From an uncultured Planctomycetaceae bacterium (GTDB lineage Bacteria; Planctomycetota; Phycisphaerae; SM23-33), in the NCBI GenBank assembly GCA_964605095.1, contig CAZSBS010000001.1:4790-68789 (forward strand): a stretch of 64,000 nucleotides of DNA. The letters are read 5' to 3'. Shown here piece after piece: positions 15,974 to 42,205 of this stretch (its first letter is position 1; each line of letters starts with the position of its first letter). The notes below the pieces were generated by a model. It saw only the letters and a program-made list of their open reading frames with translations, was not told the origin of the DNA and did no database searches. A program made the translations under genes and the position numbers.

Positions 15974-16037
15974 GCCGCAGCCGGATGGCCAAACGGCACC
16001 AACTGTAGAATGCCCCGAAGGATACGGAGATAGGCGA

Positions 16038-17057: not shown

Positions 17058-17103
17058 CCCACGGGCAACCGGGAAAACCGACAAATAAGAAAGTCCCCAG
17101 ATT

Positions 17104-17688: not shown

Positions 17689-17712
17689 CAAGAACAGCCT
17701 TTCGTACTAACA

Positions 17713-21178: not shown

Positions 21179-21368
21179 GAACGGATCGCCCGGCTGAGGT
21201 CTGTTTGCTCATTGGCCAGGGGTTTTCCAGCTTGACAGTTTTCAGACCGCCAGTAGGATTGCGGCGGTAGCTGACACTCTCCTGTATATGAGGCCATCCT
21301 ATATCGGCCCTGGAAGCCCGCAGGAGTTGGCTGCCAACAGGTGTGAGCGCTTACAGGAAGGTCAAAGC

Positions 21369-24021: not shown

Positions 24022-24038
24022 CCGGTGACGAAAGCACT

Positions 24039-24884: not shown

Positions 24885-24886
24885 CC

Positions 24887-25857: not shown

Positions 25858-27447
25858 TTGTTGGCGAAGTTTCCGTCGTTGGCGTCGTTGAAAAACTCTC
25901 ATCGAGCGAGCCTTATGGACTGGTCGGACCTGGTAAGCACGATCTTCATGACGATTTACACCTTCAGCCTCGTGATGGTGTCGGCTTACGGTCTGCACAG
26001 GTACGTGATCGTCTATCTTTATTACAAGAACCGTCGCAAGGCCCCTCAGGCGCCGGGCCGGTTCGAAGACCTGCCGCCAGTGACGGTCCAGCTTCCGATG
26101 TACAATGAGCAGCACGTGGCGCGGCGGATCATCGAAGGCGCCTGCCGCATCGACTACCCCAAAGACAAGCTCCAGATACAGGTGCTTGACGACAGTATCG
26201 ACGAGACCTGTCAGTACGCCCAGGCCGCGGTGAGCGAGGCTCGGGCCAAGGGGTTCGACATCGAGTACATCCACCGCGGCGACCGCACCGGCTACAAGGC
26301 CGGGGCGCTGGAGAACGGCCTCAAGACCGCCAAGGGCGAGTTCGTCACGATCTTCGACGCCGACTTCGTGCCCGCGACGGACATCCTCCAGCGGTCGATC
26401 CACTACTTCACCGATCCCAAGGTCTGCGTCGTCCAGACGCGGTGGGATCACATCAACCGCAACGACAACATGCTGACCCGCACCCAGGCCATCCTTCTGG
26501 ACGGGCACTTCGCCATCGAGCACGTGGCACGCAATCGCAGCAACCGGTTCATGAGCTTCAACGGCACGGCTGGAACGTGGCGGAGAACGGCAATCGCCGA
26601 TGCCGGCGGCTGGCAGCACGACACGCTGACGGAGGACTTGGATCTTTCCTACCGCGCGCAGATGCGTGGCTGGAAGTTCGTCTTTCTGCCGGAGTTGACG
26701 GCCCCGGCTGAGCTGCCGCCGGAGATGACGGCCTTCAAGGCCCAGCAGTTCCGCTGGACCAAGGGCGGTGCGCAGACCACCATCAAATTGCTGCCCAAGG
26801 TTCTGCTCAGCAAACTGCCGCTGAAGGTCAAGATCGAGGCGTTTTTCCACCTGACCGGCTTCACGATGCACATATACATGTTTACGCTTGTGGTGCTGAT
26901 GTACCCGGCGATGGTCCTCCAAACCGTTCCGCTGGAGAGCGGCTCGATGTGGCGTGGCGTGTTCGACCTGGGTGTGTTCACCTTGGCAACGCTGTCGGCC
27001 AGCGTGTTCTACGTCGCCAGCCAGATCGAGTTGTTCGGCAACTGGCGGCAGGTTGTCAAATACTTGCCCGTGCTGATGGCGGTAGGGGTGGGCCTTAGCG
27101 TCTCAAACGCCAAGGCGGTCCTGGAGGCGGTCTTTGGCCGGAAAAGCGAGTTCATCCGCACGCCCAAGTACGGCGGGTGCTCCACGGGCCTGCACCTGTC
27201 CGCGCCGCTGTCCAGCCGCGGCCGAAAGAAAAGAAGCCTGCTCCCGTACGTCGAACTGCTGTTCGGCGTCTACATGGCCGGCTGCACGATCCACAGCCTG
27301 ATGCACATAAAGGCGGCGCTGACGGCGCCGTTCCTGGTGATCTTCACGTTCGGCTTCTTCTACGTGGCGGTAACGAGCTTCATTTCCCAGCGGGTTGTTG
27401 CCCCCGCGGCGTCGGCTGAGCCGGCAGCGGCGCCGGCACGCGACTGA
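25858..27447 (+). CDS. family-2 glycosyltransferase, cellulose-synthase-like processive type (start may be 25918)
   Basis: DDS, DAD and QQFRWTKG (QxxRW) motifs; N- and C-terminal TM segments. Confidence 0.85.
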   Translation: MLAKFPSLASLKNSHRASLMDWSDLVSTIFMTIYTFSLVMVSAYGLHRYVIVYLYYKNRRKAPQAPGRFEDLPPVTVQLPMYNEQHVARRIIEGACRIDYPKDKLQIQVLDDSIDETCQYAQAAVSEARAKGFDIEYIHRGDRTGYKAGALENGLKTAKGEFVTIFDADFVPATDILQRSIHYFTDPKVCVVQTRWDHINRNDNMLTRTQAILLDGHFAIEHVARNRSNRFMSFNGTAGTWRRTAIADAGGWQHDTLTEDLDLSYRAQMRGWKFVFLPELTAPAELPPEMTAFKAQQFRWTKGGAQTTIKLLPKVLLSKLPLKVKIEAFFHLTGFTMHIYMFTLVVLMYPAMVLQTVPLESGSMWRGVFDLGVFTLATLSASVFYVASQIELFGNWRQVVKYLPVLMAVGVGLSVSNAKAVLEAVFGRKSEFIRTPKYGGCSTGLHLSAPLSSRGRKKRSLLPYVELLFGVYMAGCTIHSLMHIKAALTAPFLVIFTFGFFYVAVTSFISQRVVAPAASAEPAAAPARD

Positions 27448-27502: not shown

Positions 27503-27584
27503 TGCGAGAGGCGGGACTCGAACCCGCACCCCTTTCGGGACCAGGACCTAAACCTGGCGCGTCTGCCAATTCCGCCACCCTCGC
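27503..27584 (-). tRNA. tRNA-Leu (anticodon TAG), type II with long variable arm
   Basis: rc: GCGAGGGTGGCGGAATTGGCAGACGCGCCAGGTTTAGGTCCTGGTCCCGAAAGGGGTGCGGGTTCGAGTCCCGCCTCTCGCA; TPsiC-loop TTCGAGT; anticodon loop TTTAGGT. Confidence 0.85.
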
Positions 27585-27661
27585 GCGACCGCTGCCGCTC
27601 ACGGCGGAACATTGTCGCTTATAGAACTTATAGAAAAAGCCGGCCCGCCTTGCCAGCGTAT

Positions 27662-27706
27662 TCCGCCTTTTCCAGGTTCCGCCTTTTCCAGGTTCCGCCT
27701 TGTCTT
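27662..27706. repeat. tandem direct repeat of 16-mer ccgccttttccaggtt (2.7 copies)
   Basis: ttccgccttttccaggttccgccttttccaggttccgccttgtc in 690-bp noncoding region. Confidence 0.7.
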
Positions 27707-28151
27707 TTCCGTCGTTTCCCGAGTTCCGAGGGGCCTCCAGGGCTTCATTGTCCCCTGAAACTTGCAAAAACCCGACAATAAGAACGAGAATTACCATTGT
27801 CTTACACGGGGCGCCACGTTATGATTAGGTTAAGAGGCTGGATGTTTGGCTGCTCAGGCTTGATGGCAGGCCGGTTGCGTGAGCACATCGTCGGTGGCCC
27901 TGCGGCGCCGTACGAAAATATAAGTGAATGTTCGAATCTGGTTCTAGCTCTCCGGGCGAGCCGTTTCCAGGCTTGCCCAAGCGGGTCCACATCGGGCGGC
28001 CGCAAGGCGCCTTGGCCCGTCATGCCGATGGAGTACGTCTGGGCGATTTGGCCCGGCCGTACGTTTGCAAAGTGCCGCGTGCTCGGGTAATGCCTCCGGC
28101 GGGAGCACAGTTGCTTTTCCGTCGCGGCGCGAAGGTCGGGCATTGGCTCTC

Positions 28152-28276
28152 TTTTGCCGATTGCAACGGGCGCGACAGGCAGGTGGAAATGCGGTTCTCC
28201 GACAGGCCAGGCCTTTCGTGTCGGTAGGGACGCCCCGTTGCCGACGCCGAGGCCGCAGCGATGAGGAGATGCAATC
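28152..28276 (+). promoter_or_regulatory. conserved leader upstream of vWA paralog 1 (copy 1 of duplicated ~130-nt leader)
   Basis: ~80% identity over ~130 nt with 29527..29657 incl. shared RBS context gcgatgaggagatgcaaNcATGACC. Confidence 0.5.
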
Positions 28277-29491
28277 ATGACCATTGATTTCCGATGCGAA
28301 AACTGCGGGAAGCTGTTGAGTGTCGACGATCAGACCGGCAGCGCGGCGCGATGTCCGCATTGCCGCAAGAAAGTCACGGTCCCGGCCGCCCTGGCCGCAT
28401 TGCCCCGTCCGCACGTGCCGCCCACCGCCAGGTGCGCCACTGCTGGCTTGCCCGCCGTCGCGCAGGCGTCTGGCCAGGCTGATGGCCGGCCGGGGGAGCA
28501 AGAGCCCGTCGAGGGCGAGGCCGTCGCCGGCGCCATGGCCACGGCCATGCCATGGGTAATCAGCGCCTTCATGCACCTGGGCGTGTTCCTGGTCATGATC
28601 TTCTTCGTCATGGTGACGGTGGTCACCAAGATTCCGATTACTATCGACATACCTGAGGGGGTGAATGTCCATGAGAATCCTGGGGGCGTGATGAACCCCA
28701 AGACCGAGACGGTCTCCAAGATCGAAAGTGATCGACGGAGAGTCGTCAAGCGGGACGACCCCAAGCGGGAGGAACAGGTCGAGAGGGGCAAGACCGGCAA
28801 GAGGGTTGATCTTCTTGCTCCCTCGTCGGGTGGTGCCCGGGGCGGGGCGGCCGAATTGGGCCTGGACAACAGCGACGCGACGGGGGGGCCAGAGAGCACG
28901 TTCATCGGCGGTGGCGGCAGCGGTTTCCACATCGTGTTTGTGGTTGACCGTTCTGGCTCGATGGCTCCGACTTTCGAGCGAGTCAGGTTCGAGATGCTCA
29001 AGACCATCGCCCACTTTAAGAAGGAACAGGACTTTACGATCATCCTCTTCTCCGACAACCAGTACATCGAAGGGCCGCAGAAGCGCCTGGTCTTGGCGAC
29101 TGATGAGATCAAGGACGCGGCGACCGATTTTCTCAAGGACATAACCGCCAGCAACACGACCACGGTTTTACCAGCCCTGAAACGCGCGTTCGAGGTCCTC
29201 AAGTATGCCGACAAGGAGAAACCCGGCCGGCTCGTTTACCTGCTGAGCGACGGCGACTTTGCGGGCATGTCCGGCGGCTCGACATACACCGGCGCCGATG
29301 GCAGGGTCCTTAACGGCAACGAGGCCGTGGTCCAGTGGCTGCGGGACAACAACCCCAAGGATGAGGCGAAGGGCAGGATGCACGTTCACACGTTCCTCTA
29401 CCTCAGCAAAGACGAAGAGGCCATGAAGGTAATGAGAACCATCGCCCATGAGAACGGCGGGTGGTTCAAGCCAATTAGCGCCGATGAGTGA
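28277..29491 (+). CDS. zinc-ribbon / single-TM / periplasmic vWA-domain protein (paralog 1)
   Basis: FRCENCGKLL...CPHCRKKV C4 ribbon; TM WVISAFMHLGVFLVMIFFVMVTVV; vWA MIDAS VFVVDRSGSM...TT...LLSDGDF. Confidence 0.85.
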   Translation: MTIDFRCENCGKLLSVDDQTGSAARCPHCRKKVTVPAALAALPRPHVPPTARCATAGLPAVAQASGQADGRPGEQEPVEGEAVAGAMATAMPWVISAFMHLGVFLVMIFFVMVTVVTKIPITIDIPEGVNVHENPGGVMNPKTETVSKIESDRRRVVKRDDPKREEQVERGKTGKRVDLLAPSSGGARGGAAELGLDNSDATGGPESTFIGGGGSGFHIVFVVDRSGSMAPTFERVRFEMLKTIAHFKKEQDFTIILFSDNQYIEGPQKRLVLATDEIKDAATDFLKDITASNTTTVLPALKRAFEVLKYADKEKPGRLVYLLSDGDFAGMSGGSTYTGADGRVLNGNEAVVQWLRDNNPKDEAKGRMHVHTFLYLSKDEEAMKVMRTIAHENGGWFKPISADE

Positions 29492-29505
29492 TTCCGAGAA
29501 AACGC

Positions 29506-29661
29506 ATGTGTCAGACAAATGACTTTTTTGCCGATTGCCACCAGCGCGACGGGCTGGTAAAAATACGGTTCTCTGACAGGCAAGGGCTTTTGGCTTTTGT
29601 GTCGGCCGGGATGCCCCGTAGCCGACGGCGCCAGCGCAGCGATGAGGAGATGCAAGCATGA
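29506..29661 (+). CDS. 51-codon upstream ORF in leader of paralog 2; stop overlaps main ATG (ATGA)
   Basis: MCQTNDFFADCHQRDGLVKIRFSDRQGLLAFVSAGMPRSRRRQRSDEEMQA; homologous in-frame to 5' end of gene 30890 (MRQTTVIFAGICLAGG). Confidence 0.4.
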   Translation: MCQTNDFFADCHQRDGLVKIRFSDRQGLLAFVSAGMPRSRRRQRSDEEMQA

Positions 29662-30875
29662 CCGTTGATTTCCGATGCGAGAACTGCGGGAAGATGTTGA
29701 GTGTCGACGATCAGCCCGGCAACGCGGTTCGTTGTCCACATTGCCGCAAGAAAGTCACGGTGCCCGCGGTCCTGGCCGCGTTGCCCCGTCCGCACGTGCC
29801 CCCGAACGCCAGGCATGCCGGCTCTCATTCCGGCGGGCAGTCGCAAGGCCAGGCCGATGGCGAGCAGGACGAGCAGGGCGAGGAAGAGCCCGAAGAGGAG
29901 GGCCAGGCTGTAATGGGCGCCATGGCAACGATCATGCCCTGGGTCATCAGCGTCTTCCTGCACTTGGGCGTGTTCCTGGTCATGCTCTTCTTCGTCATGG
30001 TCGTGGTGAACACCAAGATTCCGCCGGAGATCATCATTCCGGACGCCGCGCTGAGCCTGGACAATCCCGGCGGCGTGATGGACCCCAAGACCGCGACGGT
30101 TTCCAAGAGCGAGAATGATCGGCGGACGGTCGTCAAGCGGTACACCAAGCGGGAGGACCAGGTCGACAAGGGCAAGACCGAGCAGACGGTTCAGCTTCTC
30201 GCGGCCTCATCGGACGGCGCTCACGGCGGCGCGGCCGACCTGGGCCTGACCAACAGTGACGCCGCCGGCGGACCCAAGAGCCGGTTCTTCGGCTCCGGCG
30301 GCAACGCATACCACATCGCGTACGTGGTGGACCGTTCGGGCTCGATGGCCCCGACGTTCGAGCAAGTCCGTATCGAGATGCTCAAGTCCATCAGCGGCCT
30401 TAAGGCGGTGCAGGACTTCACGATCATCCTTTTCTCCGACAACCAGTTCATCGAGGGTCCGCAGAAGCGGCTGGTCTCGGCGGAGCTTGAGAACAAGCTC
30501 GCGGCGAACAATTTCCTCAAGGACATAACCGCCCAGAGTTCGACCACGGTTTTGCCGGCCCTGAAGCGGGCGTTCCAGGTCCTCAAGTATGCCGACGCCA
30601 GCAAGCCAGGCCGGCTGGTTTACCTGCTGAGCGACGGCGACTTCGCGGGCATGTCCGGCGGCTCGACGTACACCAGCGCCGACGGCAGGGCCCTTAACGG
30701 CAACGAGGCCGTGATTCAGTGGCTGCGGGACAACAACCCCAAGGATGAGAAGAAGGGGCTGGTTCACGTCAACACGTTCCTCTACCTCAACAAGGACGAG
30801 GACGCCATGAAGGTAATGAAAACCATCGCCAAAGAGAACGCCGGCCGGTTCAAGCTCATCAGCTCCGACGAGTGA
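29658..30875 (+). CDS. zinc-ribbon / single-TM / periplasmic vWA-domain protein (paralog 2)
   Basis: 405 aa, ~70% identical to paralog 1; same C4 ribbon, TM and MIDAS motifs. Confidence 0.85.
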   Translation: MTVDFRCENCGKMLSVDDQPGNAVRCPHCRKKVTVPAVLAALPRPHVPPNARHAGSHSGGQSQGQADGEQDEQGEEEPEEEGQAVMGAMATIMPWVISVFLHLGVFLVMLFFVMVVVNTKIPPEIIIPDAALSLDNPGGVMDPKTATVSKSENDRRTVVKRYTKREDQVDKGKTEQTVQLLAASSDGAHGGAADLGLTNSDAAGGPKSRFFGSGGNAYHIAYVVDRSGSMAPTFEQVRIEMLKSISGLKAVQDFTIILFSDNQFIEGPQKRLVSAELENKLAANNFLKDITAQSSTTVLPALKRAFQVLKYADASKPGRLVYLLSDGDFAGMSGGSTYTSADGRALNGNEAVIQWLRDNNPKDEKKGLVHVNTFLYLNKDEDAMKVMKTIAKENAGRFKLISSDE

Positions 30876-30889: not shown

Positions 30890-31963
30890 ATGCGTCAGAC
30901 AACTGTCATTTTCGCGGGGATATGCCTGGCCGGCGGGCTGGCCTTTGCGGACTCGCTGACCATCAACAACCTCCCGTATGACAATGTGCGCGTCACCGAC
31001 GTTTCCAAAGGCACGATAACCTACGAGCTTAGCGGGCGCAGGTACGACAAGCCTCTGGCCGAAGTCAGCCGCGTGGTGCTGAGCGGCCAGAGGGACTTCA
31101 ACAAGGCCGAGGACGCCTTCAAGGCCGGCAAGTTTGCCGATGCCGTCGCGGCCTACACCGAGGCTGAAAAGTCCACCGATAAGCTCGACTGGCTGCGTCG
31201 GCTGATCCGCTATCGCCGCATTCCCGCGGCCGACGCGGCGAAAATGCCGGGCCAGGCCGTCGCGGACTGGTTGAGCGTCGTCGACGACGCCGGTGCCAGC
31301 CGGGCCGTGATAGCCATGGCCCCGGAAGCGGTCGCCCCCAAGGGCTCGCCCGATAACGCCTTGGCGATGGAGCTGCTGAAAAAACGCCTCGGCAAGGGCG
31401 ATCCGATATTCCGCGCCAAGGTCAAGGACCTGCTGCTTAATCTCTATGCTGCCGAGGACCTCAAAGACAAGGCGATGCTGCTCCAGGGCGAAGGGCCGGC
31501 CACCGCCCCCGGCGGCGAGCAGGCGCCCCCGCCGCTGGTGGTCTCGGTCGAGCAGGTCTCCAGGCAGTTGCAGGAGGCCGCCAGCCAGATCAAGCTCGGC
31601 CAGTACGACGCCGCGGCTGAGAGCATAAAGGCGAAGCTTAACCGGTTTACCAGCAGTGAGCTTCCAGGCGCGCTGGTGCTTCGGGGCAAGGCGCTTCAGT
31701 TGTCATACGAGAAGGGCGGCTCCAAGGATGTCAAGAAGCTCAAGGAGGCTGGGCTGTGCTTCATGCGCGTTGCGGCATGTTGCGACCCTACCACCCCGCA
31801 GGTGCCGGAGGCCCTTTACCTCGCGGCGATGGTCGAGCGTGTACTGGGCAACCATGTCGCGGCCGCCAATGCGATGCGGATGTTGATCGCCCGGTACGCC
31901 GCGAGCGAGTGGGCCCAGAGGGCCCAGACCGCGTTGGGCGGTGCCGCCGGGCCGGAGAAGTAA
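30890..31963 (+). CDS. secreted alpha-helical protein of unknown function
   Basis: RBS ggaga 30881; signal peptide MRQTTVIFAGICLAGGLAFA; Ala/Lys-rich helical composition. Confidence 0.65.
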   Translation: MRQTTVIFAGICLAGGLAFADSLTINNLPYDNVRVTDVSKGTITYELSGRRYDKPLAEVSRVVLSGQRDFNKAEDAFKAGKFADAVAAYTEAEKSTDKLDWLRRLIRYRRIPAADAAKMPGQAVADWLSVVDDAGASRAVIAMAPEAVAPKGSPDNALAMELLKKRLGKGDPIFRAKVKDLLLNLYAAEDLKDKAMLLQGEGPATAPGGEQAPPPLVVSVEQVSRQLQEAASQIKLGQYDAAAESIKAKLNRFTSSELPGALVLRGKALQLSYEKGGSKDVKKLKEAGLCFMRVAACCDPTTPQVPEALYLAAMVERVLGNHVAAANAMRMLIARYAASEWAQRAQTALGGAAGPEK

Positions 31964-32085: not shown

Positions 32086-32763
32086 ATGTGGGATTTTCAA
32101 TGGGCGACATTGGCGCAGATACAGCCCTCCGGCAATCTGGACTACTTCGAGATGCTGGTCTGGCCGGGCGGCGGGAGTATCGGCATTCTGCTGTGGCTGT
32201 TGAGCGTCGTGCTGGTTGCGCTGTGCATCCAGTTCTTCATCACGATCCGCCAGGGCAACATCATGCCCGACCTGGTCAAGCAGCAGATACAGACTCTTTT
32301 CGACAATAAGCAGTACCGCGAAGCGATCGAGGTGACGGCCACCGAGCCGAGCATGCTCAGCTACGTGGTTCATGCGGCGCTATCAGAGGCGGCGCACGGA
32401 TACGCCTCGATGGAGCGCGCCATGGAAGAGTCGGCCGAGGAAAAAAGCTCGGGCATGCTCCGCAAGATCGAGTGGCTGAATCTGCTGGGCAACATCAGCC
32501 CGATGCTTGGCCTGTTGGGAACCGTCTGGGGCATGATCCTGGCCTTCATGGCGATCGTCGCGGCCAAGGGCATCCCCTCGCCGGACGCGCTGGCTAAATC
32601 GATCGGCATCGCGCTGGTGACGACCCTGCTGGGCCTTATGGTGGCGATTCCGGCGCTAGGGGTCTTTGCCATTCTGCGCAACCGCATCGATGCGCTGAGC
32701 AACCAGGTGATCATGCAGTCGCAGGAGTTGATTTCGACGTTTCGCCCGGCCCCCAAGGGCTGA
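32086..32763 (+). CDS. MotA/TolQ/ExbB-family proton-channel stator subunit
   Basis: 225 aa; three TM helices; C-terminal MotA_ExbB region ...ISPMLGLLGTVWGMILAFMAI... Confidence 0.85.
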   Translation: MWDFQWATLAQIQPSGNLDYFEMLVWPGGGSIGILLWLLSVVLVALCIQFFITIRQGNIMPDLVKQQIQTLFDNKQYREAIEVTATEPSMLSYVVHAALSEAAHGYASMERAMEESAEEKSSGMLRKIEWLNLLGNISPMLGLLGTVWGMILAFMAIVAAKGIPSPDALAKSIGIALVTTLLGLMVAIPALGVFAILRNRIDALSNQVIMQSQELISTFRPAPKG

Positions 32764-32814: not shown

Positions 32815-33375
32815 ATGACAATGGCAACGAAAAAGTTTCGTTCATGCAGTGACGTCGGGTTCAACATGACCCCCATGATCGACTGCACGTTCCAGTTGAT
32901 CATCTTCTTCATCCTTGTCGGCCAGGTTGCCAACGAAACCTATGCCAAGAACGTGAAGCTCGTCAGGCCGGTCGACAGCCAGGCCATACCGTCGTCGGTG
33001 GCCAAGTTCACCAACAAGGTGACGGTGAACGTTGTCTCGGCCGCGGCCGGGGAGTTGAACCCGGACCCTGCCACGGCTTCGGAGTTGAAGTTCTACCAGA
33101 TTCTCACCGTGAAGTACCATGTCGGCGAGATTGACCGGATGATCGACGTAATCAAGAAACTCAGGAGCGACTACGAGAAGCAATTCGGCACGACCGTTTC
33201 GCCAACGGCAGGCGCAGGCGGCAAGGAAGGCGATGACAACCGGATGTTCTTCCTTGAGATCCGTGCCGACGAGCGCGTCAACTGGCAGGATGTGGCGCCC
33301 GTCATCCGTGCCGGCGTCGAGGCCGGCATCAACAAGATGAACATCACCGCCCTGACGGCACGGATCGGAGACTAA
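32815..33375 (+). CDS. ExbD/TolR-family protein (paralog 1)
   Basis: N-terminal MTPMIDCTFQLIIFFILV single TM typical of ExbD/TolR. Confidence 0.75.
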   Translation: MTMATKKFRSCSDVGFNMTPMIDCTFQLIIFFILVGQVANETYAKNVKLVRPVDSQAIPSSVAKFTNKVTVNVVSAAAGELNPDPATASELKFYQILTVKYHVGEIDRMIDVIKKLRSDYEKQFGTTVSPTAGAGGKEGDDNRMFFLEIRADERVNWQDVAPVIRAGVEAGINKMNITALTARIGD

Positions 33376-33883: not shown

Positions 33884-33985
33884 CTTATCCGCGCCGGGCG
33901 GGTGATGCCGCGGCAGGCTGGGCATGAGAAGAATGAGCGACATCGCCCGTTTGGATGGCGAAAGGCTCTGCCAAGGGAGACTATC

Positions 33986-34492
33986 ATGGCGATTTCTACA
34001 AGCAGGACGGTAGAAGGCGACGAGAAAGTCCACCATAAGGCGCCCGCCGGAAAGCCAAAGGGCTCAGCCAACCTCCAGCCGCCCATGACCCCGATGATCG
34101 ACGTGACGTTCCAACTGCTGCTGTTCTTCCTGCTGACCTGCGAGTTCCGAGAGTCCGAAGGGGCGATACCCGGCACGCTGCCCCGGATCGACAATGGGCT
34201 GGTTGTTAGGCCTCCAGTTCCGCCCCAGTCGGACCCGATCGAGATCCGGCTGCGTCCCTCCGCCGACCGGCAGTCGGCAAGTTACCAACTGACCGGAGTG
34301 GCCACGGTTATCACGAGCGTCCGTGAGTTGGGCGACCTGCTCCGGGTTCGCCAGGAGCAGCTTGGCAGCGGGGAGGTGCCGGTGGTGATATACCCCAACC
34401 CGGATGTGCCCTGGGGGTTTGTCGTTGAGGCGTTCAACCAGGCCAAGAGGGCGAGGTTCAGCAAGATCGGCTTTGCCCAGGGAATACTGTAA
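33986..34492 (+). CDS. ExbD/TolR-family protein (paralog 3, recent duplicate of paralog 2)
   Basis: ATG 33986; ...QPPMTPMIDVTFQLLLFFLLTCEF...VPWGFVVEAFNQAKRARFSKIGFAQ near-identical blocks to paralog 2. Confidence 0.78.
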   Translation: MAISTSRTVEGDEKVHHKAPAGKPKGSANLQPPMTPMIDVTFQLLLFFLLTCEFRESEGAIPGTLPRIDNGLVVRPPVPPQSDPIEIRLRPSADRQSASYQLTGVATVITSVRELGDLLRVRQEQLGSGEVPVVIYPNPDVPWGFVVEAFNQAKRARFSKIGFAQGIL

Positions 34493-34545: not shown

Positions 34546-37500
34546 ATGACGAAGATTCGCATCGGCCTGCCCAAGCTGGCTGCAATCGGCATAATCGCGG
34601 TGGCGAGCCTGTCGTGCGCGGCTGTGGCGCAAGAAAAGAAGATACCCAGCGCCTACGAGCAACTGCCGATAGACAGGCTCATCAAGCAGCTTTCGCAGTT
34701 GGGGATGACCGAACTGTTGCAGGCCATCGAGGACGATATTCCGGCCGAGGACAAGTCCTTCCGGGCTCTGACGCTCCGCGGCCGCGTCCGCATGGGTCAG
34801 GCCAACGCCATGGCCAAGCCGGAAGACCAGAACGCGAAGATGGACGAGGCCATCGTGATTCTGCGTGCCGCGGTTAAGAAGGGCCAAGAGGAGGACAGCG
34901 CCGACGCCGGCGACCAGCTCGAGTTGTATCGGGTCATGTTGGAGTTGGCGACGGCGGAGGGGCGGTACCGCATTGAAAGCCCGCACATTCTCCGCCTGCG
35001 AATGCTGCTGGGCAACGACGCCGACCGCAAGATTATACTCCGATTCACCAAGGAGGCCGTGGAACTGTCCTACATCCTTGAGGACAAGATCTCCCGCGCG
35101 CTTACGGGGTTGCGGTCGAACATGGGCGATTACATGCGATACGGACCCGCAATGGAGGACCTCCAGCGGGAGATGCGCTACAACTCCGGATGGATCCGCC
35201 TGCACCGCGCCATGGCCCTGCCAGCCGGGAGCGAGCGGGCTGAACTCTGCCGCAACGTCATCGCCGACATGAAGGAGTTCTCCGAAGACCCCGACAGCGG
35301 CGTTATGGGCTGGGCCATGTTTGCCACGGGAGCCGCCCAACGCATGCTGGGCAATTGGGCCGATGCCGATGATGTGCTCAAGAAGGTCGCCGAAAACCCC
35401 AACGAGGACAAGGAACTGCGCCAGCGGGCGTGGTTCGAACGGGTTCGAAACTGCATCGACGAGGGTGCCGACGCGAAGATCGACCGCGCCCTGGCTGATT
35501 TCGAGGCCGGCTCCCTGGCCATCTGGGGCGAGGAAAAACGGGTCATCGTCGATCTGCGTCTGGTGCTGCTGCGGAGCTATCGAGTCGAGTTGGCGGCAGT
35601 CAAGGAAACCAACGCCGCCAAGAGGAAGGCCCTGTTCGCCCAGGCCCAGGCCGAACTGCTGAAGTTCGTCGAGAAGTACGCCGACCGCCCGGACCTGATC
35701 AGGCCCTTCCTTGAAATGGTCAATACCAAGTTCGCGGGCGACGACGACCTGACCAACGCTAGCGCCATCGTCTGCATGGCAAGGGCCTATGCCAAGCTCG
35801 CCAGCGAGAAGCCCCAGGACAAGGCCGAGGGGGAAAAGCTCCTGCTGAGGGTGCTGAATCACAAGGACCTCGACAACCCCAAGATCGCCCAGGCTATCGA
35901 GCCCGGTGTGCTCTACGAGCTTGCCTTCATAATGAACCAGCGCAAGCTCAACGTCGAGGCGTCCAAGTACTTCGTCAGGCTTGCCCGCAAGTATCCCAAG
36001 CACGACCTGGCCGAGAAGTCAGCCATGTTCGCGGTCCGAAGCCTCTACGGCGTTTTAGCCGAACGCCAGGAAAAGGGCGAGGAGATTTCCCCGAGCCTTC
36101 GCCTGGAATACATCCGCGCCCTGGAAACGTTGCTGGGAAACTGGTCAACCGCGAAAGACGCCGTCAAGTGGAACTTCGACCTTGCCGCCCAGTGCATCAA
36201 GCTGGCCGGGCAGTCCGAGGAACCAGCCGTCAAGTTCTACTGGCAGGTCCGGGCAATCGCCGCCAACGAGAAGATCCCCCTGGCGATGCTGGAGTACATG
36301 GAGGCTCAGCATGCCGCCCTGGAAATGCGATACCAGATCGTGCTGAACCGCGACGAGTTGGCCGAGGTGCTCGGCGGCGGCCCCGAGCGGCTCAAGCAGT
36401 CTCTGGGCCGGCTGGCCGAGACGCTTGTGGAGCTGGACAACGTCGTCCTGCCGCCGGAGGCGTCCGCGACGTCGGCCCCGGCCGAGGACGCCGAGGTGAA
36501 GGTCTCCGCGGAAGCCCGCGACAAGAAGATCACCGAGACGGGCAAGCTGCTCAACGACAGCCTCAAGACGTACTCGGACCCGACAGCCCTTGTCGAGCAA
36601 CTCAAGAAGTACTCCGTCGACGCCCTGGCCGAGAGCAAGAAGGCGGCTGAGAAGGCCGCGTCGGTTGGGGGCGAGGAGAAGGCGCAGTTCCAGGCCAACG
36701 CCGATGGGCTCAAGGAGTGGTCCGCCCAGGCCGAATACCAGGCCGCTGTCATCAAGTACGAGCAGTTTCCCAAACTGCTCTCCAAGGACAATGCCGAGGG
36801 GCGACAGAAGATCGAACAGGAGGCCCTGGGGGATCTGCGGGCGCTGATAGCCAGGCTGACGGCCGAGGGAAAGTCCAATGGCGCCTCGGCCCGCGAGCAT
36901 TCGCCGGTCCTGCCGATGGCCCACGAGTTCGAGATACGCAAGCTCATCGAACTCGGGCGGACCGACGAGGCGATCGCCAAGATCCAGGATTTCAAGAAGT
37001 CCTTCCCCGATCAGGCCAAGCAACTTATTCAGTTGCTGGTCCAGCAGATTCAGGAGCAGATCATCCGGCTGGAGAAGCGCCTCAAGAGTGCCGTGACCCA
37101 GGCCCAGGCCGATGAGGTCCGCCAGGCGCTGGATCGCTACCAGACGGCTTACGTGAACTTCGCCAAGGACCTGTATGACCCCGTGGCAGGCAAGCCTCTC
37201 AAACTGCCTGAGTTGGAAGCCATGCGGCGCGATCTGCGGGCACTGGAGCAGAAGCGCGATTTTGACGGCCTGTTGGCAAAGGCCCAGGGCCTGCCCGCTC
37301 TGGCGGCCGAGAACGACGTGAAGCTCGAGGACCTCAAGGGCAAGGAAGTGCTGGATAGCTGGATTGCCGGCGCAAAGGCGCCGGGCGCCGACCGCAACAA
37401 CATCCTGCCCAAGCTGGCCGCGGCCACGATGAACATGGTGCTGAACATCCGCGACGTTGTCATGGAACGCTACGGACTCGTCCAGATGTACGCCGACTCG

Positions 37501-38226
37501 CTTCTGAACAGGGGCAAGGCCGAACATTTGGCCAAGCGGGACGACTCGTCCAAGGCTGCCTACAAGGAGGCCCTGGACCTGTTCAAGAAGTGCTTCGATC
37601 TGGACGACGCCTGCCGCAAGGGCGAGGCTGCATGGCTGGCCAAGAAGTACAGCCCGTTCATCGAGGACGTCAAGGCCAACGCCAAGAGCATGGGCGCCGT
37701 CAGCAGGATGGTCGAGGCCTTCCGGAAGGAGTTGAAGGACGCCGAGCAGATCCAGGCCATGTCCGCGGACATGTCGTCGATGGAGTATGCCGATAAGTAT
37801 GTCCGCGGCGCAGCCAATCAGCAGCAGGAGCAGGAGCGGCTGCCGCGTGCGGTGGAGATGCTGGTTCGCGGGTGGAACAACCTGGTGCGGACATTGCAGA
37901 ACCAGACCATTATTGACCACCTGAACATTATCGGCATGGCCCGGGCGCAGCGTGGGCTGGGCAACTATGGCGAGGCAATGGCGCTGTATCGCCGTTACAC
38001 CGAGGGTCTCCCCAGAGACAAGTTCCCCTCGAAATACTGGCATGCCGAACTGGAGCGGTGCCAGTGCAACCTGGACGGCTACCTGAGCAACCCCGAGGCC
38101 ATGAAGAACTTGGTGATCCAGATAAACTCCCTGAGGATCAAGGACAAGGAAATGGGAGGCATGGCTGCCGAGTTTGAGCAGATAAAGAAGACGGCAGGCG
38201 GCAAGGCCGGCCAGGGCGGCAAGTGA
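34546..38226 (+). CDS. 1226-aa secreted all-alpha (TPR/coiled-coil-like) protein of unknown function
   Basis: signal peptide MTKIRIGLPKLAAIGIIAVASLSCAAVA; uninterrupted ORF with protein-like K/E/A/L composition; antisense ORFs are GC-artifacts. Confidence 0.8.
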   Translation: MTKIRIGLPKLAAIGIIAVASLSCAAVAQEKKIPSAYEQLPIDRLIKQLSQLGMTELLQAIEDDIPAEDKSFRALTLRGRVRMGQANAMAKPEDQNAKMDEAIVILRAAVKKGQEEDSADAGDQLELYRVMLELATAEGRYRIESPHILRLRMLLGNDADRKIILRFTKEAVELSYILEDKISRALTGLRSNMGDYMRYGPAMEDLQREMRYNSGWIRLHRAMALPAGSERAELCRNVIADMKEFSEDPDSGVMGWAMFATGAAQRMLGNWADADDVLKKVAENPNEDKELRQRAWFERVRNCIDEGADAKIDRALADFEAGSLAIWGEEKRVIVDLRLVLLRSYRVELAAVKETNAAKRKALFAQAQAELLKFVEKYADRPDLIRPFLEMVNTKFAGDDDLTNASAIVCMARAYAKLASEKPQDKAEGEKLLLRVLNHKDLDNPKIAQAIEPGVLYELAFIMNQRKLNVEASKYFVRLARKYPKHDLAEKSAMFAVRSLYGVLAERQEKGEEISPSLRLEYIRALETLLGNWSTAKDAVKWNFDLAAQCIKLAGQSEEPAVKFYWQVRAIAANEKIPLAMLEYMEAQHAALEMRYQIVLNRDELAEVLGGGPERLKQSLGRLAETLVELDNVVLPPEASATSAPAEDAEVKVSAEARDKKITETGKLLNDSLKTYSDPTALVEQLKKYSVDALAESKKAAEKAASVGGEEKAQFQANADGLKEWSAQAEYQAAVIKYEQFPKLLSKDNAEGRQKIEQEALGDLRALIARLTAEGKSNGASAREHSPVLPMAHEFEIRKLIELGRTDEAIAKIQDFKKSFPDQAKQLIQLLVQQIQEQIIRLEKRLKSAVTQAQADEVRQALDRYQTAYVNFAKDLYDPVAGKPLKLPELEAMRRDLRALEQKRDFDGLLAKAQGLPALAAENDVKLEDLKGKEVLDSWIAGAKAPGADRNNILPKLAAATMNMVLNIRDVVMERYGLVQMYADSLLNRGKAEHLAKRDDSSKAAYKEALDLFKKCFDLDDACRKGEAAWLAKKYSPFIEDVKANAKSMGAVSRMVEAFRKELKDAEQIQAMSADMSSMEYADKYVRGAANQQQEQERLPRAVEMLVRGWNNLVRTLQNQTIIDHLNIIGMARAQRGLGNYGEAMALYRRYTEGLPRDKFPSKYWHAELERCQCNLDGYLSNPEAMKNLVIQINSLRIKDKEMGGMAAEFEQIKKTAGGKAGQGGK

Positions 38227-38424: not shown

Positions 38425-39681
38425 ATGCTGAAGCACGCGTATCTTTCCATGCTGTGCTGCCTCTTGCTGGCTTGCGGTTATTGCTTTGCCGAGAAAAAGC
38501 AGATCAAGCTCAAGAGCGGCGAGACCATCATTGGCGAGGTTGTCGAGCAGACTCCCGAGGGGATAAAAGTCAAGCGCCCCCTGGCGACGGTGTTCTATCC
38601 GAAGGACCAGATCGTCTCGATCGAGCCGGTATACGACGTTAAGGAAGATTACGCGAATCGTCTGTCCAAGCTCAAGAAGGACGACTTCGAGGGCCAGTTG
38701 GCACTTGGGCAGTGGGCCTTGGAGAACAAGCTCTATCCCGAGGCCGTCAAGCACCTTGAAGAGGCCGTGAAGCTCAAGAACGAGGAGCGCGCCCGCTTGC
38801 TGCTTCGCCAGGCCCAGGCCAGGCTCGAGGATGCCGAGAAAGCCAAGGAGACTCCCTCCAAGGGCGGCGACAAGTCGGGGTCCTCGGCAGGCGGCGATGG
38901 TGCCACGTTCAGCATGAAGCAAATGGTCAGCGACGATGACATCCAGCGGATTCGCATGGCGGAACTCTCGGATGACGACCGGGTGAAAGTCGAGTTTCGC
39001 AAGGACGTGGTCGACAGGTTCTTGGAGCAGGTTCGTGGGCGGGGCAAATTCGCGGAGGAAACCGACGTCGCCAAGTTCCGCCGCCTGCCGGCCTTGCGCC
39101 AGGCCAAGATCATCATCGAGGAAGTCGGCCCCGGCGACCCACTCAGGAACGACATCATCATCAAGTCGGACCCGGCTTCAATGCGCGAGTTCCACTCGGG
39201 CGTCTGGCGGTGGGTTTCGACCAGTTGTGCCGCGGCGACCTGTCACGGCTCGGCCAAGGGTCAGGGCGGGCTGAAGCTCTGGAACGTTACCGCCCGAAGC
39301 GACAACGTGGACTACACCAACTTCCTGATCCTCGACGCGTTTCACACCAAGGGCGGCCTTCAGGTGATCCGGCGCGATGAGCCGGAAGAGTCGCTGCTGT
39401 TGCAGTTCGGCCTGCCGGACAACCAGGCCAAGCACCGTCATCCGAAGGAGAAACGCCCGCCGTTTTCCAGCAAGACCTCGCCGCTCTACAAGCAGACGCT
39501 GGATTGGATTCTGTCTTTGAAGCGCCCGCTGCACCCGGAGTACGGCCTCAAGAGCATTCCGCCGCACGTGATGAAGCGAATCGACCCGTTGTTCGGGCTG
39601 CCCACTTCACCGGTGCCCAAGGATAAGGGCGCCAAGGACAAGTCTGGCAAGTCTGATAAGTCAAGCAAGCCGCCTTTCTGA
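38425..39681 (+). CDS. secreted protein with C-terminal PSCyt1-like (planctomycete cytochrome-c-like) region carrying a CX4CH motif
   Basis: signal peptide MLKHAYLSMLCCLLLACGYCFA; ...WRWVSTSCAAATCHGSAKGQGGLKLWN... Confidence 0.55.
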   Translation: MLKHAYLSMLCCLLLACGYCFAEKKQIKLKSGETIIGEVVEQTPEGIKVKRPLATVFYPKDQIVSIEPVYDVKEDYANRLSKLKKDDFEGQLALGQWALENKLYPEAVKHLEEAVKLKNEERARLLLRQAQARLEDAEKAKETPSKGGDKSGSSAGGDGATFSMKQMVSDDDIQRIRMAELSDDDRVKVEFRKDVVDRFLEQVRGRGKFAEETDVAKFRRLPALRQAKIIIEEVGPGDPLRNDIIIKSDPASMREFHSGVWRWVSTSCAAATCHGSAKGQGGLKLWNVTARSDNVDYTNFLILDAFHTKGGLQVIRRDEPEESLLLQFGLPDNQAKHRHPKEKRPPFSSKTSPLYKQTLDWILSLKRPLHPEYGLKSIPPHVMKRIDPLFGLPTSPVPKDKGAKDKSGKSDKSSKPPF

Positions 39682-39712: not shown

Positions 39713-40378
39713 TTGGCGATGGAGCAGATTCAATACGCCTTCGTGGCTGTGCTGGTCGGCGTGCTGGTCGCCGCCAGCGTTTCTTTCGCGGTGATGGGCC
39801 TGGGCAAGGTTCTTCGGCGTCGCCGGTTGGCTCGCGACGCCCACCAGCGCGGGCTGAGGTTCTTTCCTGACGATCCTTACGACGTGCCGAGGCGTTATGC
39901 GGACTTCGCGGTGATATCCTCCGGGCACAGCCCGTGCGCTAACAACGTAACTGCCGGCGGGATAGTCGGCAGGACGGTGCGAGCATTCGATTTTCGCTGC
40001 GAGTTGGGCCACGGAACTCGCAGGCTCACGCGGCGCTATAGCGTGGCCATTGCCGAGACTCGCCTGAGTCAGCCGAGCCTGCTGATGTGGCACACGGGCG
40101 ACGGCGAGTTGGCCCCGCTGGCGGCAAGGGATGTCCAGGGCCGGGTCGGACAGTGGAGTTTCCGCGGGTCGCGGGAGTTGGCTGAGACTGTCGAGGCCGC
40201 GTGCCGACATCTCGGCCCGGCCCAGCCGAGCGTCGAGATTCGCGGCTCGGTCGTCCTGATAGCCGTGTCGGTGCGGCGGGCCATTCGCCAGTACGCCCTT
40301 GCCTTGGACGAAGTTTCGGGCATTATAGAGGCCCTGGACGGCCCCCGTGGCCCCAGGCCACCCGCGGTGGGGGCCTGA
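39713..40378 (+). CDS. hypothetical membrane-anchored protein
   Basis: 221 aa; N-terminal TM FVAVLVGVLVAASVSFAVMGL; coding-like GC3. Confidence 0.5.
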   Translation: MAMEQIQYAFVAVLVGVLVAASVSFAVMGLGKVLRRRRLARDAHQRGLRFFPDDPYDVPRRYADFAVISSGHSPCANNVTAGGIVGRTVRAFDFRCELGHGTRRLTRRYSVAIAETRLSQPSLLMWHTGDGELAPLAARDVQGRVGQWSFRGSRELAETVEAACRHLGPAQPSVEIRGSVVLIAVSVRRAIRQYALALDEVSGIIEALDGPRGPRPPAVGA

Positions 40379-40549
40379 CCGTGGGCCGGGCCGCCGGGCA
40401 GTCGGCGAGAATCGAGAATATCGCGTCGAAGTTGTTGGACAAGATGTATGCAGGCCGTTGCAAACGGCCCTCCGGTGTGTTAGAAAGTTGCTTGCGAGAT
40501 TCCACTGGCCGTGCCAATGCCGGCTGCGGACATATTGGGAGAGGACATC

Positions 40550-42205
40550 GTGCAAAAGGACAAACGTTTCGGTTGCGTCGCGCTGAGCTTGGTCTGCCTG
40601 TCCGCGGCGCTACTCGCGGGATGCCGCAGCACCGCCAGCCCACTGGCAGAAGCCACCGCCCGCGCTGGTCGGCTCTATGATCGGGCGTGCAGCCTGCTTA
40701 ACGACACGCCCTACATGGTCCGCCAGCAGTATGCGCCCTTCGCCAAGCCGATCGAGCTGCCCTCGGATCCCAATGCGGCGGTAAAGCTGGTCCAGCTTAC
40801 CGCGCTGGGGCAGATCAACCCGCGGGCCGACAAGACGCTCAACGAGGCCATCGACGGCCTGACCAAGGCCCTGGCTGGGGCCGAAGGCCGGCCGGAGATC
40901 GAAAAAGTCAACGCGCAGGCTGTCTTGGCCCGGCTGTACGCTCTGCGCGGCTACCGCATGTCGATCGAGGCCGGCCTGAGGTGCCGACAGGCATGGGACC
41001 TCGCCGGCCTGGTGGAAAGCGACGCAGTCCGCATCAGCGGGTTGGGCAAGCGGATCGCCAGCTACGACCAGATCCTTAGCGTCACGGACGAGTCGCTCGG
41101 CAAGATGGCCGAGGCCGCCAAGACGCAGCAGTCGGCCGCCGAGGATAAGATCGCCGAGGCCAACACGAAAATCGCGGCCCTGGACAAGGAAGAGGCGGAC
41201 CTGAAGGCTGCAAACGTCACAATCTCCGAGGAGTCGCGAAAGCTTCTCACTGAAAGCCAGATTGCTGACCCGATCAAGGGCGTCGCGATTTATGACGAGG
41301 CCAAGACTAAGGAAGACAAGGCCAGCGTGAACTCCGCCCGCATAGCGCAGATCGAAGAGGCCATGCAGACCATCAAGTCACAGGTGGCGGAGTTCGAGGT
41401 GGTTCGGGTGGCCGCGGTTAATCAGGCGAAAGTGGCTGGCGATATGGCCGATACCCGCCAGAAGAGCCGCTCCGAAACCGATCAGGCGCGGAAGGCCCAG
41501 ATTGACAAGTTGACCGAGGCCCAGAAGCAGGCGGAGACGCTGGCGGGGCAGGTCGTCGAGGTATCCAAGGCCGCCGCCGCCGCCGAGGCCAAGGCCCTGG
41601 GCGACTACGACAAGGCTGTCAAGACCTACGAGACCTATGGGCAAATCACGGAATCGTACGCCAAGGATCCAGGCGCCGATGCCTTCCTCAAGCCCGACCC
41701 CGCCATTATTGCGATGCTTGGCGACGTGCAAATGGCGCGGGCGGACCTCAGGGTCCAGGCCCTCCTGCTTCAGCATCGCCTGCAAACCGTCGTCGCGGAG
41801 ACATCCGGCATATGGTCCAGCCTGCCGACGCAGAACACCACGCCCGCGGTTATCGGACAGATGAAGGATTACGTCCCCAATCCGGGCAAGCTTAAGGAAG
41901 ATGCCCAGCGCGACTTCAGTTGGGCCGCGAGGGCCTACGAGAAGGCCAAAGAGGCTGTTATTGACCCGAAGCTCAAGTGGGCCTACGTGCTCCAGCAGTC
42001 GGCCGCGAACGTCAGCCTCTACCGCCTGTCCGGCGACGCCGACGCCAAACAGAAGGCGACAGCGGAACTGGACTCCCTCGGCACAGAGGAAGCCTCGCCC
42101 CTGATCGCCCCAACGGCTGACGGTTTCCGCAAGCTGCTGGCCGCCCCGGCCCTGCTTGGCTCCGAGGCGCCTTTCAGCCCGGCGCCCACCCAGCCCGCGC
42201 CGTGA
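40550..42205 (+). CDS. coiled-coil lipoprotein of unknown function (GTG start after RBS gggagagga)
   Basis: (M)QKDKRFGCVALSLVCLSAALLAGC lipobox; long Ala/Lys/Glu-rich coiled-coil segments. Confidence 0.6.
   Translation: MQKDKRFGCVALSLVCLSAALLAGCRSTASPLAEATARAGRLYDRACSLLNDTPYMVRQQYAPFAKPIELPSDPNAAVKLVQLTALGQINPRADKTLNEAIDGLTKALAGAEGRPEIEKVNAQAVLARLYALRGYRMSIEAGLRCRQAWDLAGLVESDAVRISGLGKRIASYDQILSVTDESLGKMAEAAKTQQSAAEDKIAEANTKIAALDKEEADLKAANVTISEESRKLLTESQIADPIKGVAIYDEAKTKEDKASVNSARIAQIEEAMQTIKSQVAEFEVVRVAAVNQAKVAGDMADTRQKSRSETDQARKAQIDKLTEAQKQAETLAGQVVEVSKAAAAAEAKALGDYDKAVKTYETYGQITESYAKDPGADAFLKPDPAIIAMLGDVQMARADLRVQALLLQHRLQTVVAETSGIWSSLPTQNTTPAVIGQMKDYVPNPGKLKEDAQRDFSWAARAYEKAKEAVIDPKLKWAYVLQQSAANVSLYRLSGDADAKQKATAELDSLGTEEASPLIAPTADGFRKLLAAPALLGSEAPFSPAPTQPAP

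Follow-up and report, generated by a model that had tools for sequence, protein, structure and literature searches.

Tandem zinc ribbon-vWA membrane proteins beside ExbB/ExbD-type motor genes in uncultured Phycisphaerae: candidate force transducers of the cell envelope

We analyzed a stretch of 64,000 nucleotides (hereafter, the window; contig CAZSBS010000001.1, assembly GCA_964605095.1) from an uncultured Planctomycetaceae bacterium of the Phycisphaerae, focusing on two adjacent genes for membrane proteins with an N-terminal zinc ribbon and a C-terminal von Willebrand factor A (vWA) domain. The genes, A (28277-29491, 404 amino acids (aa)) and B (29658-30875, 405 aa), lie on the same strand with a gap of 166 nucleotides (nt). 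Their products share the start FRCENCGK...RCPHCRKK and are identical at 296 of 408 positions (73%, BLASTP). A preliminary description of this DNA had placed both open reading frames (ORFs) exactly here, had estimated ~70% identity and had read in each protein the order ribbon, helix and vWA. All of this was confirmed, and the architecture is a real observation, well above chance. The following features of the pair were recognized:

28277..29491, + strand: paralog A, zinc ribbon-transmembrane helix-linker-vWA, 404 aa; the faster-evolving copy, with every family-invariant residue kept
28277..28423, + strand: A, predicted cytoplasmic C4 zinc ribbon (aa 1-35) and VPAxLAxLPRPxVPP motif (aa 35-49); Cys in 90/90 homologs, RpoP-like
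28532..28624, + strand: A, transmembrane helix, M91-P-W-V-x-S96-x3-H100-x-G102 (conservation, hydrophobicity)
28637..28657, + strand: A, putative strand ITIDIPE past the helix, similar to a motor box, drifted from the consensus of the family
28922..29488, + strand: A, predicted periplasmic vWA domain with metal ion-dependent adhesion site (MIDAS) D224-x-S226-x-S228, T295, D325 (Pfam, conservation, PDB profile)
29658..30875, + strand: paralog B, same architecture, 405 aa; the conservative copy, closest to single-copy orthologs
29904..30008, + strand: B, transmembrane helix, M93, S98-x3-H102, G104 (AlphaFold2 helix 83-117, conservation)
30027..30044, + strand: B, putative post-helix strand EIIIPD, fitting the family motif [VI][IV][VI]P[DE]
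30276..30872, + strand: B, vWA domain, aa 207-405 (pLDDT >90, Foldseek, PDB profile)

The C-terminal domain was identified as vWA by several kinds of search. Pfam VWA_2 scored above its cut-off in both proteins (A, E 2.3e-9; B, 27.1 bits, the cut-off being 27), a PDB profile search matched the vWA domain of ITIH4 (E 1e-15) and Foldseek returned the vWA domains of ITIH1/4, SpaC, alpha2delta and ANTXR2 (E 1e-10 to 1e-6). The vWA identity, which the preliminary description had offered for refutation by profile search, is confirmed by all three. Conservation was measured in an alignment of 90 homologs with a mean column identity of 44%. The D-x-S-x-S of the MIDAS is invariant in it, and the Thr and second Asp are at least 90% conserved. 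In A and B themselves the metal site is intact, as had already been read.

Exactly one hydrophobic segment was present in each of the 90 family members, and AlphaFold2 (AF2) modeled a helix at residues 83-117 of B, which bears out the single helix described earlier. In B numbering, M93, S98 and H102 occur in 90 of 90 homologs, P94 in 89, W95 in 87 and G104 in 88, and the seventh position after the His is Met or Leu in 84. By these counts, no part of the protein is as strictly conserved across the family as the putative motor-docking helix. TonB and TolA carry in their helix the SHLS motif (Ser-3X-His-6X-Leu-3X-Ser), whose Ser and His form a contact hub with the first transmembrane helix of ExbB/TolQ in cryo-electron microscopy structures (PMC12905483). 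The S-x3-H of the A and B helix is the core of this motor-docking motif. At 7-11 residues past the helix, a [VI][IV][VI]P[DE] stretch was found, with P in 74 and D in 56 of the 90 homologs; the equivalent post-helix position of TonB/TolA is occupied by the 'motor box' strand, which is bound by ExbD/TolR (PMC12204202). AF2 modeled residues 118-205 of B, this stretch included, as low-confidence disordered coil, leaving a disordered periplasmic linker of ~90 residues between the helix (end ~117) and the vWA domain (start ~207). No Asp is present in the helix.

The zinc ribbon is also well supported. All four of its Cys are invariant (90/90), and it matches the zinc ribbon of archaeal RNA-polymerase subunit P (RpoP) in NCBIfam (E 5e-8) and in PDB sequence (E 7e-5) and profile (E 2e-5) searches, with Pfam zinc-ribbon models matching below their cut-offs only. 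AF2 predicted a four-stranded ribbon (pLDDT ~87-93). Beside it lies a near-invariant VPAGLASLPRPxVPP motif, in which P36, L39, A40, L42, P43 and P45 are each found in at least 90% of the 90 homologs. Ribbon, motif and an acidic linker together make up a cytoplasmic extension of ~85 residues before the helix.

An HMM search over 1.84 billion cluster representatives yielded 1,001 proteins at E<=1e-30, a count that also takes in lipoprotein and secreted fusions carrying the same vWA domain. Among the best 150 of these, the ribbon (with the VPAGLASLPRP motif) was present in 107, and 103 of the 107 have Ser/Thr-x3-His in a hydrophobic helix context. A further 35 of the best 150 show the helix motif without the ribbon, some of them being truncated gene calls, and the ribbon is missing from a sister subfamily. 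One apparent ribbon-less protein, P0335, was rejected because its start was mis-called and the ribbon lies upstream in frame. Genuine absence of the ribbon was seen at five inspected loci, where in-frame stops lie upstream of the start; there the MPWVISLLFHVG helix and the IIIPD stretch are retained, and so is the gene cluster. Since ribbon-less relatives retain helix and cluster, these comparisons indicate that the link of helix, vWA domain and motor is the core and that the ribbon is an accessory input module on it. A similar N-terminal ribbon (FRCxxCGxLL...CPxCG) was also observed in four tandem genes of a Thermoguttaceae metagenome-assembled genome (MAG; locus L064, 9230-12995), where different domains with several membrane passes follow it. 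Membrane proteins of Planctomycetota thus appear to reuse the ribbon widely as a cytoplasmic module at the N-terminus.

With regard to topology, the N-in/C-out orientation of the preliminary description, with a cytoplasmic ribbon and an extracytoplasmic vWA domain, is supported by three features of the sequences. Neither A nor B has a signal peptide, and the Cys4 ribbon is at the N-terminus; Cys is essentially absent after the helix and from the C-terminal half; and in relatives the same vWA domain (53-77% identical) sits behind a lipoprotein signal peptide (LAAGC) or behind secreted domains, for example a signal-peptide-bearing FGE-sulfatase domain (P0103) or a repeat domain (P0084). The positive-inside rule was uninformative because both helix flanks are near neutral: the 15 residues that precede the helix have a mean net charge of -0.4, and the 15 that follow one of -0.7.

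The genes that follow A and B on the same strand encode a putative proton-driven motor framed by two secreted proteins with tetratricopeptide repeats (TPR):

30890..31963, + strand: secreted protein, 357 aa (363 aa from a GTG at 30872), with a five-stranded N-terminal beta domain and two TPR modules (AF2)
32086..32763, + strand: ExbB/TolQ-like proton channel subunit; Pfam MotA_ExbB E 1.7e-27, best NCBIfam match TolQ, below cut-off
32815..33375, + strand: ExbD/TolR-like protein 1 (ExbD1), heterologous to ExbD2/ExbD3; transmembrane Asp, MTPMIDCTFQL
33377..33883, + strand: ExbD/TolR-like protein 2 (ExbD2), Pfam-supported ExbD
33983..34492, + strand: ExbD/TolR-like protein 3 (ExbD3), 61% identical to ExbD2; start taken as the ATG aligning with that of ExbD2
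34546..38226, + strand: secreted TPR-rich protein of 1,226 aa, the conserved last gene of the core cluster

ExbD1 resembles ExbD2 and ExbD3 in the transmembrane segment only, and the GTG start given for ExbD3 by the ORF finder (33902) is probably too far upstream. In the translations, all three ExbD proteins have the transmembrane Asp, and ExbB has GLLGTVWG and VAIPA motifs, which we take, by eye, to correspond to D25, T148 and T181 of the Escherichia coli proteins. Thus, the motor genes appear to carry the residues expected of an active motor. The 357-aa TPR protein has an AF2 model that matches generic TPR proteins (OGT, PilW, LapB and BamD) and a sub-threshold NCBIfam match to YbgF/CpoB (30 bits against a cut-off of 90); homologs of it are labeled 'TolA-binding protein' by JGI. 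Its similarity to YbgF/CpoB is weak and did not single it out as a CpoB ortholog.

To what extent this arrangement is conserved was assessed by a pattern scan of one genome per species, which gave 61 loci in about 55 species-level MAGs; all loci encoding the full protein come from uncultured Planctomycetota, mostly labeled Phycisphaerae. Synteny was counted where the downstream DNA measured at least 4 kb, a condition that selected 46 loci. ExbB and ExbD genes were found downstream on the same strand in 43 of them, down to ~30% vWA identity, and a TPR gene stands directly after the vWA gene(s), before the motor genes, in 41. Related loci also have a TPR protein of ~1,100-1,200 aa beyond the motor genes. 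At the motor-linked loci, the vWA gene is single in 25, double in 17 and triple in one. The idea that vWA copy number tracks ExbD copy number was rejected, as combinations of 1+3, 1+2, 2+2, 2+3 and 3+3 (vWA+ExbD) all occur.

We inferred a role like that of TonB and TolA from the helix motif and the motor-gene context, and the same proposal was then found to have been published. A sequence analysis in Mol Biol Evol in 2025 (PMC12204202) proposed vWA force transducers, with a prototype from Tichowtungia aerotolerans, in which a vWA domain replaces the C-terminal domain of TolA/TonB. They were reported in Proteobacteria, Planctomycetes, Verrucomicrobia, Bacteroidetes and Rhodothermaeota, with function unassigned and no reported phenotypes; 'many' of them have the SHLS motif, whose His was stressed, and in AlphaFold3 models the conserved His, which is His35 in the example shown, falls at the motor site used by TonB and TolA (PMC12204202). 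A and B share with this class the single helix with the SHLS Ser and His, the disordered linker with a stretch that may form a short post-helix strand, the ~100 residues from helix to C-terminal vWA domain, the occurrence in Planctomycetes and the adjoining genes for ExbB and heterologous ExbD proteins (in the window and in 43 of 46 loci). They differ in their ~85-residue cytoplasmic extension, which puts the His at ~100 instead of 35, in gene order (vWA genes upstream of the TPR and motor genes, not downstream), in their tandem duplication and in the third ExbD. A and B thus show the testable features of the class, in which we would place them by its published description and not by homology with the prototype; matches with a named source in our searches came from Planctomycetota or Phycisphaerae. 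The preliminary description had called a zinc ribbon coupled across the membrane to a vWA domain unusual; of this, the vWA domain carried across the membrane is not new, since a ribbon-less version was already described in 2025 as a putative force transducer. The main text of that paper, in which the word 'zinc' does not occur, mentions neither the zinc ribbon with the VPAGLASLPRP motif nor the recurrent duplication with a faster upstream copy (PMC12204202).

A and B also resemble TonB and TolA themselves in the N-in single-pass anchor with Ser-x3-His, in the putative post-helix strand, in the long flexible periplasmic spacer and in the company of ExbB/TolQ and ExbD/TolR genes, with a TPR protein nearby like CpoB in tol-pal. 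In contrast, they have no match to TonB_C, TonB_2 or TolA, and their head is a metal-dependent vWA domain; partner capture would therefore not proceed by beta-strand addition, as there is no TonB_C or TolA domain III. Their spacer has neither a proline-rich composition nor a helical structure, SHLS lacks its final Ser, and no TolB, Pal or TonB-dependent receptor was recognized in the cluster.

A third system bears on the ribbon. GltJ, of the Agl-Glt machine of Myxococcus xanthus, has a cytoplasmic N-terminal Cys4 zinc ribbon (ZnR; C5, C8, C28 and C31), one helix and a periplasmic domain, and it works with a TolQR-like motor (PMC11135422). Its ZnR is a regulatory switch (PMC11135422; PMC11761067), and the machine includes the vWA lipoprotein adhesin CglB and TPR proteins (PMC11761067). 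The likeness covers the Cys4 ribbon before a single helix, the TolQR-like motor and the presence of vWA and TPR proteins in the same machine. GltJ, however, has a GYF domain and a TonB-C-like periplasmic domain, neither of which occurs in A and B, where a single polypeptide combines ribbon and vWA domain. Among the genes of the cluster, neither MglA/MglB nor a Glt outer-membrane barrel was recognized. Neither GltJ nor ZitP chains appeared among the PDB sequence matches of the ribbon up to E = 10, the best being archaeal RpoP, and the parallel is therefore one of analogy only.

Building on the observed architecture, conservation pattern and synteny, we propose, with a probability of roughly 0.65, that A and B dock by the S-x3-H helix on ExbB/ExbD and transmit force derived from the proton-motive force to a partner bound at the MIDAS, the ribbon serving cytoplasmic control or placement. 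They would be inner-membrane proteins that follow the plan of TonB and TolA but end in a vWA head where those have their own C-terminal domain. The helix would dock outside the ExbB pentamer through Ser and His, as in TonB and TolA, and the [VI][IV][VI]P[DE] strand would act as the 'motor box' gripped by the periplasmic domain of ExbD. Proton flow through ExbB/ExbD would then pull on, or cycle, the vWA head, whose metal site might bind an acidic residue of a periplasmic or outer-membrane partner, the TPR proteins of the cluster being obvious candidates. The ribbon and the VPAGLASLPRP motif could be a cytoplasmic handle for localization or on/off control, by analogy with the GltJ ZnR. Outer-membrane tethering, polysaccharide handling, adhesion and gliding are candidate processes.

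Several observations weigh against this proposal. Most family members have Val at the fourth SHLS position, where the motif calls for Ser, and the helix region (residues ~75-215) gave no relevant TonB/TolA similarity in Pfam at E<=10; the likeness lies in a motif and its context. The post-helix strand of A has drifted from the consensus, with a ratio of nonsynonymous to synonymous substitution rates (dN/dS) between A and B of 0.82. Among the products of the cluster, we identified no outer-membrane partner, no TonB box and no component that binds peptidoglycan. Three loci lack motor genes and hold orphan copies (L013, L014 and L035), of which the first two are in MAGs that also carry a motor-linked locus. 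In relatives, a lipoprotein form of the vWA domain (259 aa, no helix) is encoded at a SASA-esterase/RuvC locus, and these helix-less lipoproteins and the orphan copies indicate that the vWA head can function or persist without a direct motor tether. It should also be noted that the vWA force transducer proposal is itself computational, with no later experimental work found in the literature.

The orphan and lipoprotein copies and the lack of profile-level TonB/TolA similarity would fit a passive scaffold. In such a case, A and B would be periplasmic adhesion modules anchored in the inner membrane that form a static complex with TPR proteins, as proposed for BatA/BatB-type systems, while the motor energizes something else and the conserved helix residues serve oligomerization or another membrane partner. 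The pairing of vWA and TPR is a recurrent scaffold combination, and here a gene for a protein of generic TPR fold directly follows. Bat operons, named for 'aerotolerance' in Bacteroides and Leptospira, combine the vWA proteins BatA/BatB with TPR proteins, a MoxR ATPase and a DUF58 protein, and have no ExbB/ExbD. The resemblance lies in the tandem membrane-anchored vWA proteins followed by TPR proteins. However, no MoxR or DUF58 gene was found among the genes scanned from 19307 to 45422, where ExbB/ExbD genes are present, and Bat proteins have neither the ribbon nor the S-x3-H helix; a Bat-type system was rejected on the absence of MoxR and DUF58 from the scan, which also tells against a static complex of this kind. 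A passive role would further leave unexplained the invariant Ser and His at TonB/TolA spacing in a single-pass helix and the near-universal same-strand linkage to ExbB/ExbD, which persists at vWA identities of ~30%, and no other TonB/TolA-like candidate was recognized among the cluster genes. We therefore regard the passive scaffold as unlikely, though the best placed of the alternatives.

A signaling device has less in its favor. One helix joins a cytoplasmic zinc-binding module to a periplasmic ligand-binding domain, so that ligand binding by the vWA domain could be relayed to the ribbon, and a cytoplasmic regulator sequestered or released there as by zinc-binding anti-sigma factors; the conserved proline-rich motif beside the ribbon could bind such a partner, and the ribbon has the lowest dN/dS of all segments (0.19). 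Against this, neither the window neighbors nor the related loci have a conserved sigma factor, kinase or other regulator beside the vWA genes. The only sigma-70-family protein in the scanned region (42417-44108) lies beyond the cluster and recurs in just two related loci. The same region (19307 to 45422) contains no kinase, and of the 'signaling/anchoring architecture' suggested earlier, the architecture stands; nothing found suggests signaling, and the motor-gene context, which that suggestion did not use, favors a TonB/TolA-like reading. Moreover, helix, vWA domain and full cluster are all retained in relatives that have no ribbon, so that the ribbon is dispensable for the core function, and a disordered linker of ~90 residues is ill suited to relaying a conformational signal. 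A signaling role thus seems quite improbable.

Finally, it is hardly credible that A and B belong to the second, plug-type family (TPH-vWA), whose helix would be inserted in the ExbB pentamer in place of an ExbD and which typically has heterologous vWA gene pairs beside a tolQ-like gene, an ExbD-like helix Asp, no SHLS residues and no tolR neighbors (PMC12204202): two vWA copies are indeed present here, but most relatives have one, and the sequence features of A and B already contradict it, as their helix has Ser and His and no Asp and three ExbD genes with the transmembrane Asp adjoin.

Returning to the proposed transducers, we compared A and B by segment. Identity is 86% in the ribbon, 79% in the helix, 78% in the vWA domain and 60-64% in the linkers. 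At an overall dS of 0.40, dN/dS was 0.19 in the ribbon, 0.39 in the vWA domain, 0.49 in the transmembrane helix and 0.74 in the cytoplasmic linker; the linkers range from 0.49 to 0.82 overall, the highest value being that of the first 29 post-helix residues. Between A and B, the ribbon is therefore the segment under the strongest purifying selection. Divergence is concentrated in the linkers, as had been claimed, whereas ribbon and vWA domain are not the 'almost invariant' segments they were said to be.

The duplicated unit extends ~125 nt upstream of the genes and includes a conserved promoter-like site and the 5' untranslated region (UTR):

28150..28276, + strand: duplicated upstream block of A; degenerate promoter-like site, ~88-nt 5' UTR, Shine-Dalgarno (SD) sequence GAGGAG; aligns with the B block and with single-copy loci L006-L011
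29525..29657, + strand: duplicated upstream block of B; promoter-like TTGCCA-N18-AAAAAT (29535-29564), 5' UTR, SD

A conserved block, CCGATTGCC...TGGTAnAAAT, precedes each paralog and the vWA genes of L006-L011. Since the promoter-like site is part of the duplicated unit, A and B each probably have their own promoter. In the UTR, a 5' UUCUCC and the SD GAGGAG form a pairing that encloses a GC-rich hairpin in seven of eight minimum-free-energy folds of single sequences (not in L008) and in the RNAalifold consensus; in these models, the pairing may be a translational control element. An Rfam scan gave no match in the duplicated UTRs, only tRNA-Leu.

The nearest single-copy relatives are 64-77% identical to B and 57-66% to A, the best relative, L006, being 70% identical to A. 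A clusters with two A-type proteins, encoded on contigs that also encode B-type ones, and it is farther than B from every outgroup tested (for example, 0.33 versus 0.23). Nine changes at otherwise conserved positions are specific to the A clade; they are scattered, and none affects the Cys, the Ser/His or the MIDAS. These relationships suggest that promoter, 5' UTR and gene were duplicated together, in tandem, within this lineage, after which B would have kept the ancestral sequence and A would have diverged faster, chiefly in the post-helix strand and the linkers. An independent duplication was found in another lineage (P0039/P0043), and some lineages carry older upstream copies that are 25-35% identical. 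Thus, tandem duplication appears to be recurrent, with the upstream copy apparently the faster to evolve. One contig, L067 (among L067-L071), joins an upstream half of the SASA-esterase/RuvC type to the TPR-ExbB cluster. Because the lipoprotein paralog elsewhere sits at the SASA-esterase/RuvC locus, the contig is either a recombinant, formed within the vWA sequence common to both loci, or a chimera of metagenome assembly, and its lipoprotein-vWA gene at a motor cluster was not used as evidence.

Further genes on the same strand flank the core cluster:

25858..27447, + strand: processive-type family 2 glycosyltransferase (GT2), cellulose/poly-N-acetylglucosamine (PNAG)-synthase-like (Pfam and NCBIfam)
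38425..39681, + strand: secreted 418-aa protein, after tRNA-Cys; downstream of the cluster in 36 loci (tblastn)
39713..40378, + strand: 221-aa membrane-anchored protein with an RRRR stretch past its helix; downstream in 32 loci (tblastn)
40511..42205, + strand: 564-aa coiled-coil lipoprotein; downstream of the cluster in at least 7 loci (tblastn)

The best NCBIfam matches of the GT2 protein are cellulose and PNAG synthases, below cut-off. Of 32 loci, 14 have its gene upstream in the same orientation, the ribbon-less L073 and L075 have it as well, and it remains 60-88% identical even where the vWA protein is only ~35-40% identical. In one distant locus (L004/L029), an MBOAT gene and two AlgX-domain genes were observed upstream in place of GT2. 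Taken as neighborhood evidence, the GT2, MBOAT/AlgX and TPR proteins hint at envelope or polysaccharide biology. The 418-, 221- and 564-aa proteins have no Pfam match. The first of these combines a beta domain at its N-terminus with a TPR stretch and a segment of the form C-x4-CH (SCAAATCHGSAKGQGGLKL), which resembles the cytochrome-like PSCyt domains of planctomycetes. A role of the 221-aa protein as cytoplasmic partner of the ribbon was not supported, given that, among three informative ribbon-less loci, L075 has it and L072 and L074 do not.

The wider surroundings were also inspected. The core cluster is bracketed by tRNA-Leu (27503-27584, minus strand) and tRNA-Cys (38315-38388, + strand). 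Beside the former, within a stretch of ~690 nt without a convincing gene, lies a perfect 16-nt tandem repeat (TTCCGCCTTTTCCAGG, 2.6 copies, 27661-27701). Farther upstream are an AlgE-type 'Alginate export' outer-membrane barrel (21288-22829, Pfam E 1.5e-64) and three ABC-transporter genes (22843-25648), annotated in the 100%-identical contigs L001 and L002 as NMT1-type binding protein, permease and ATPase. Judging from ORF starts, positions 1-17700 of the window are apparently a ribosomal-protein/SecY/RNA-polymerase alpha region. Part of the ribosomal-protein region is also found upstream of the GT2-vWA cluster in L073 and L076, and synteny is therefore conserved over a long range.

A broader reading, which we consider doubtful but worth stating, is that vWA proteins with a ribbon serve, under control from the cytoplasm, as the 'grappling hooks' of a hitherto undescribed trans-envelope machine of about ten genes in uncultured Phycisphaerae. 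It would comprise the vWA transducer(s), the TolQ/TolR-like motor, the two secreted TPR proteins, the three conserved proteins that match no known domain and often GT2. Like the GltJ ZnR in the focal adhesions of myxobacteria, the ribbon and its motif might recruit or gate the transducer, driven by the proton-motive force, at particular cell sites, and the tandem heads might hold different partners. If true, such a machine would replace Tol-Pal-like outer-membrane tethering or drive polysaccharide-linked adhesion or gliding.

To our knowledge, TonB and TolA were long the only known routes by which proton energy of the inner membrane reaches the outer membrane. The vWA heads proposed in 2025 would add a third type, in which binding depends on a metal. 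The locus described here supplies specific constructs and candidate partners with which a first experiment could be set up, although immediate testability is limited because all carriers found are uncultured; it sharpens a recent question and does not open a new one. What it adds is a well-populated Phycisphaerae branch of ~1,000 cluster representatives at E<=1e-30, lipoprotein and secreted fusions included. This branch shows that a putative transducer can gain a cytoplasmic zinc-ribbon input domain, in parallel with GltJ, that its head has been repeatedly duplicated and also released as a lipoprotein, and that a defined set of partner genes travels along with it.

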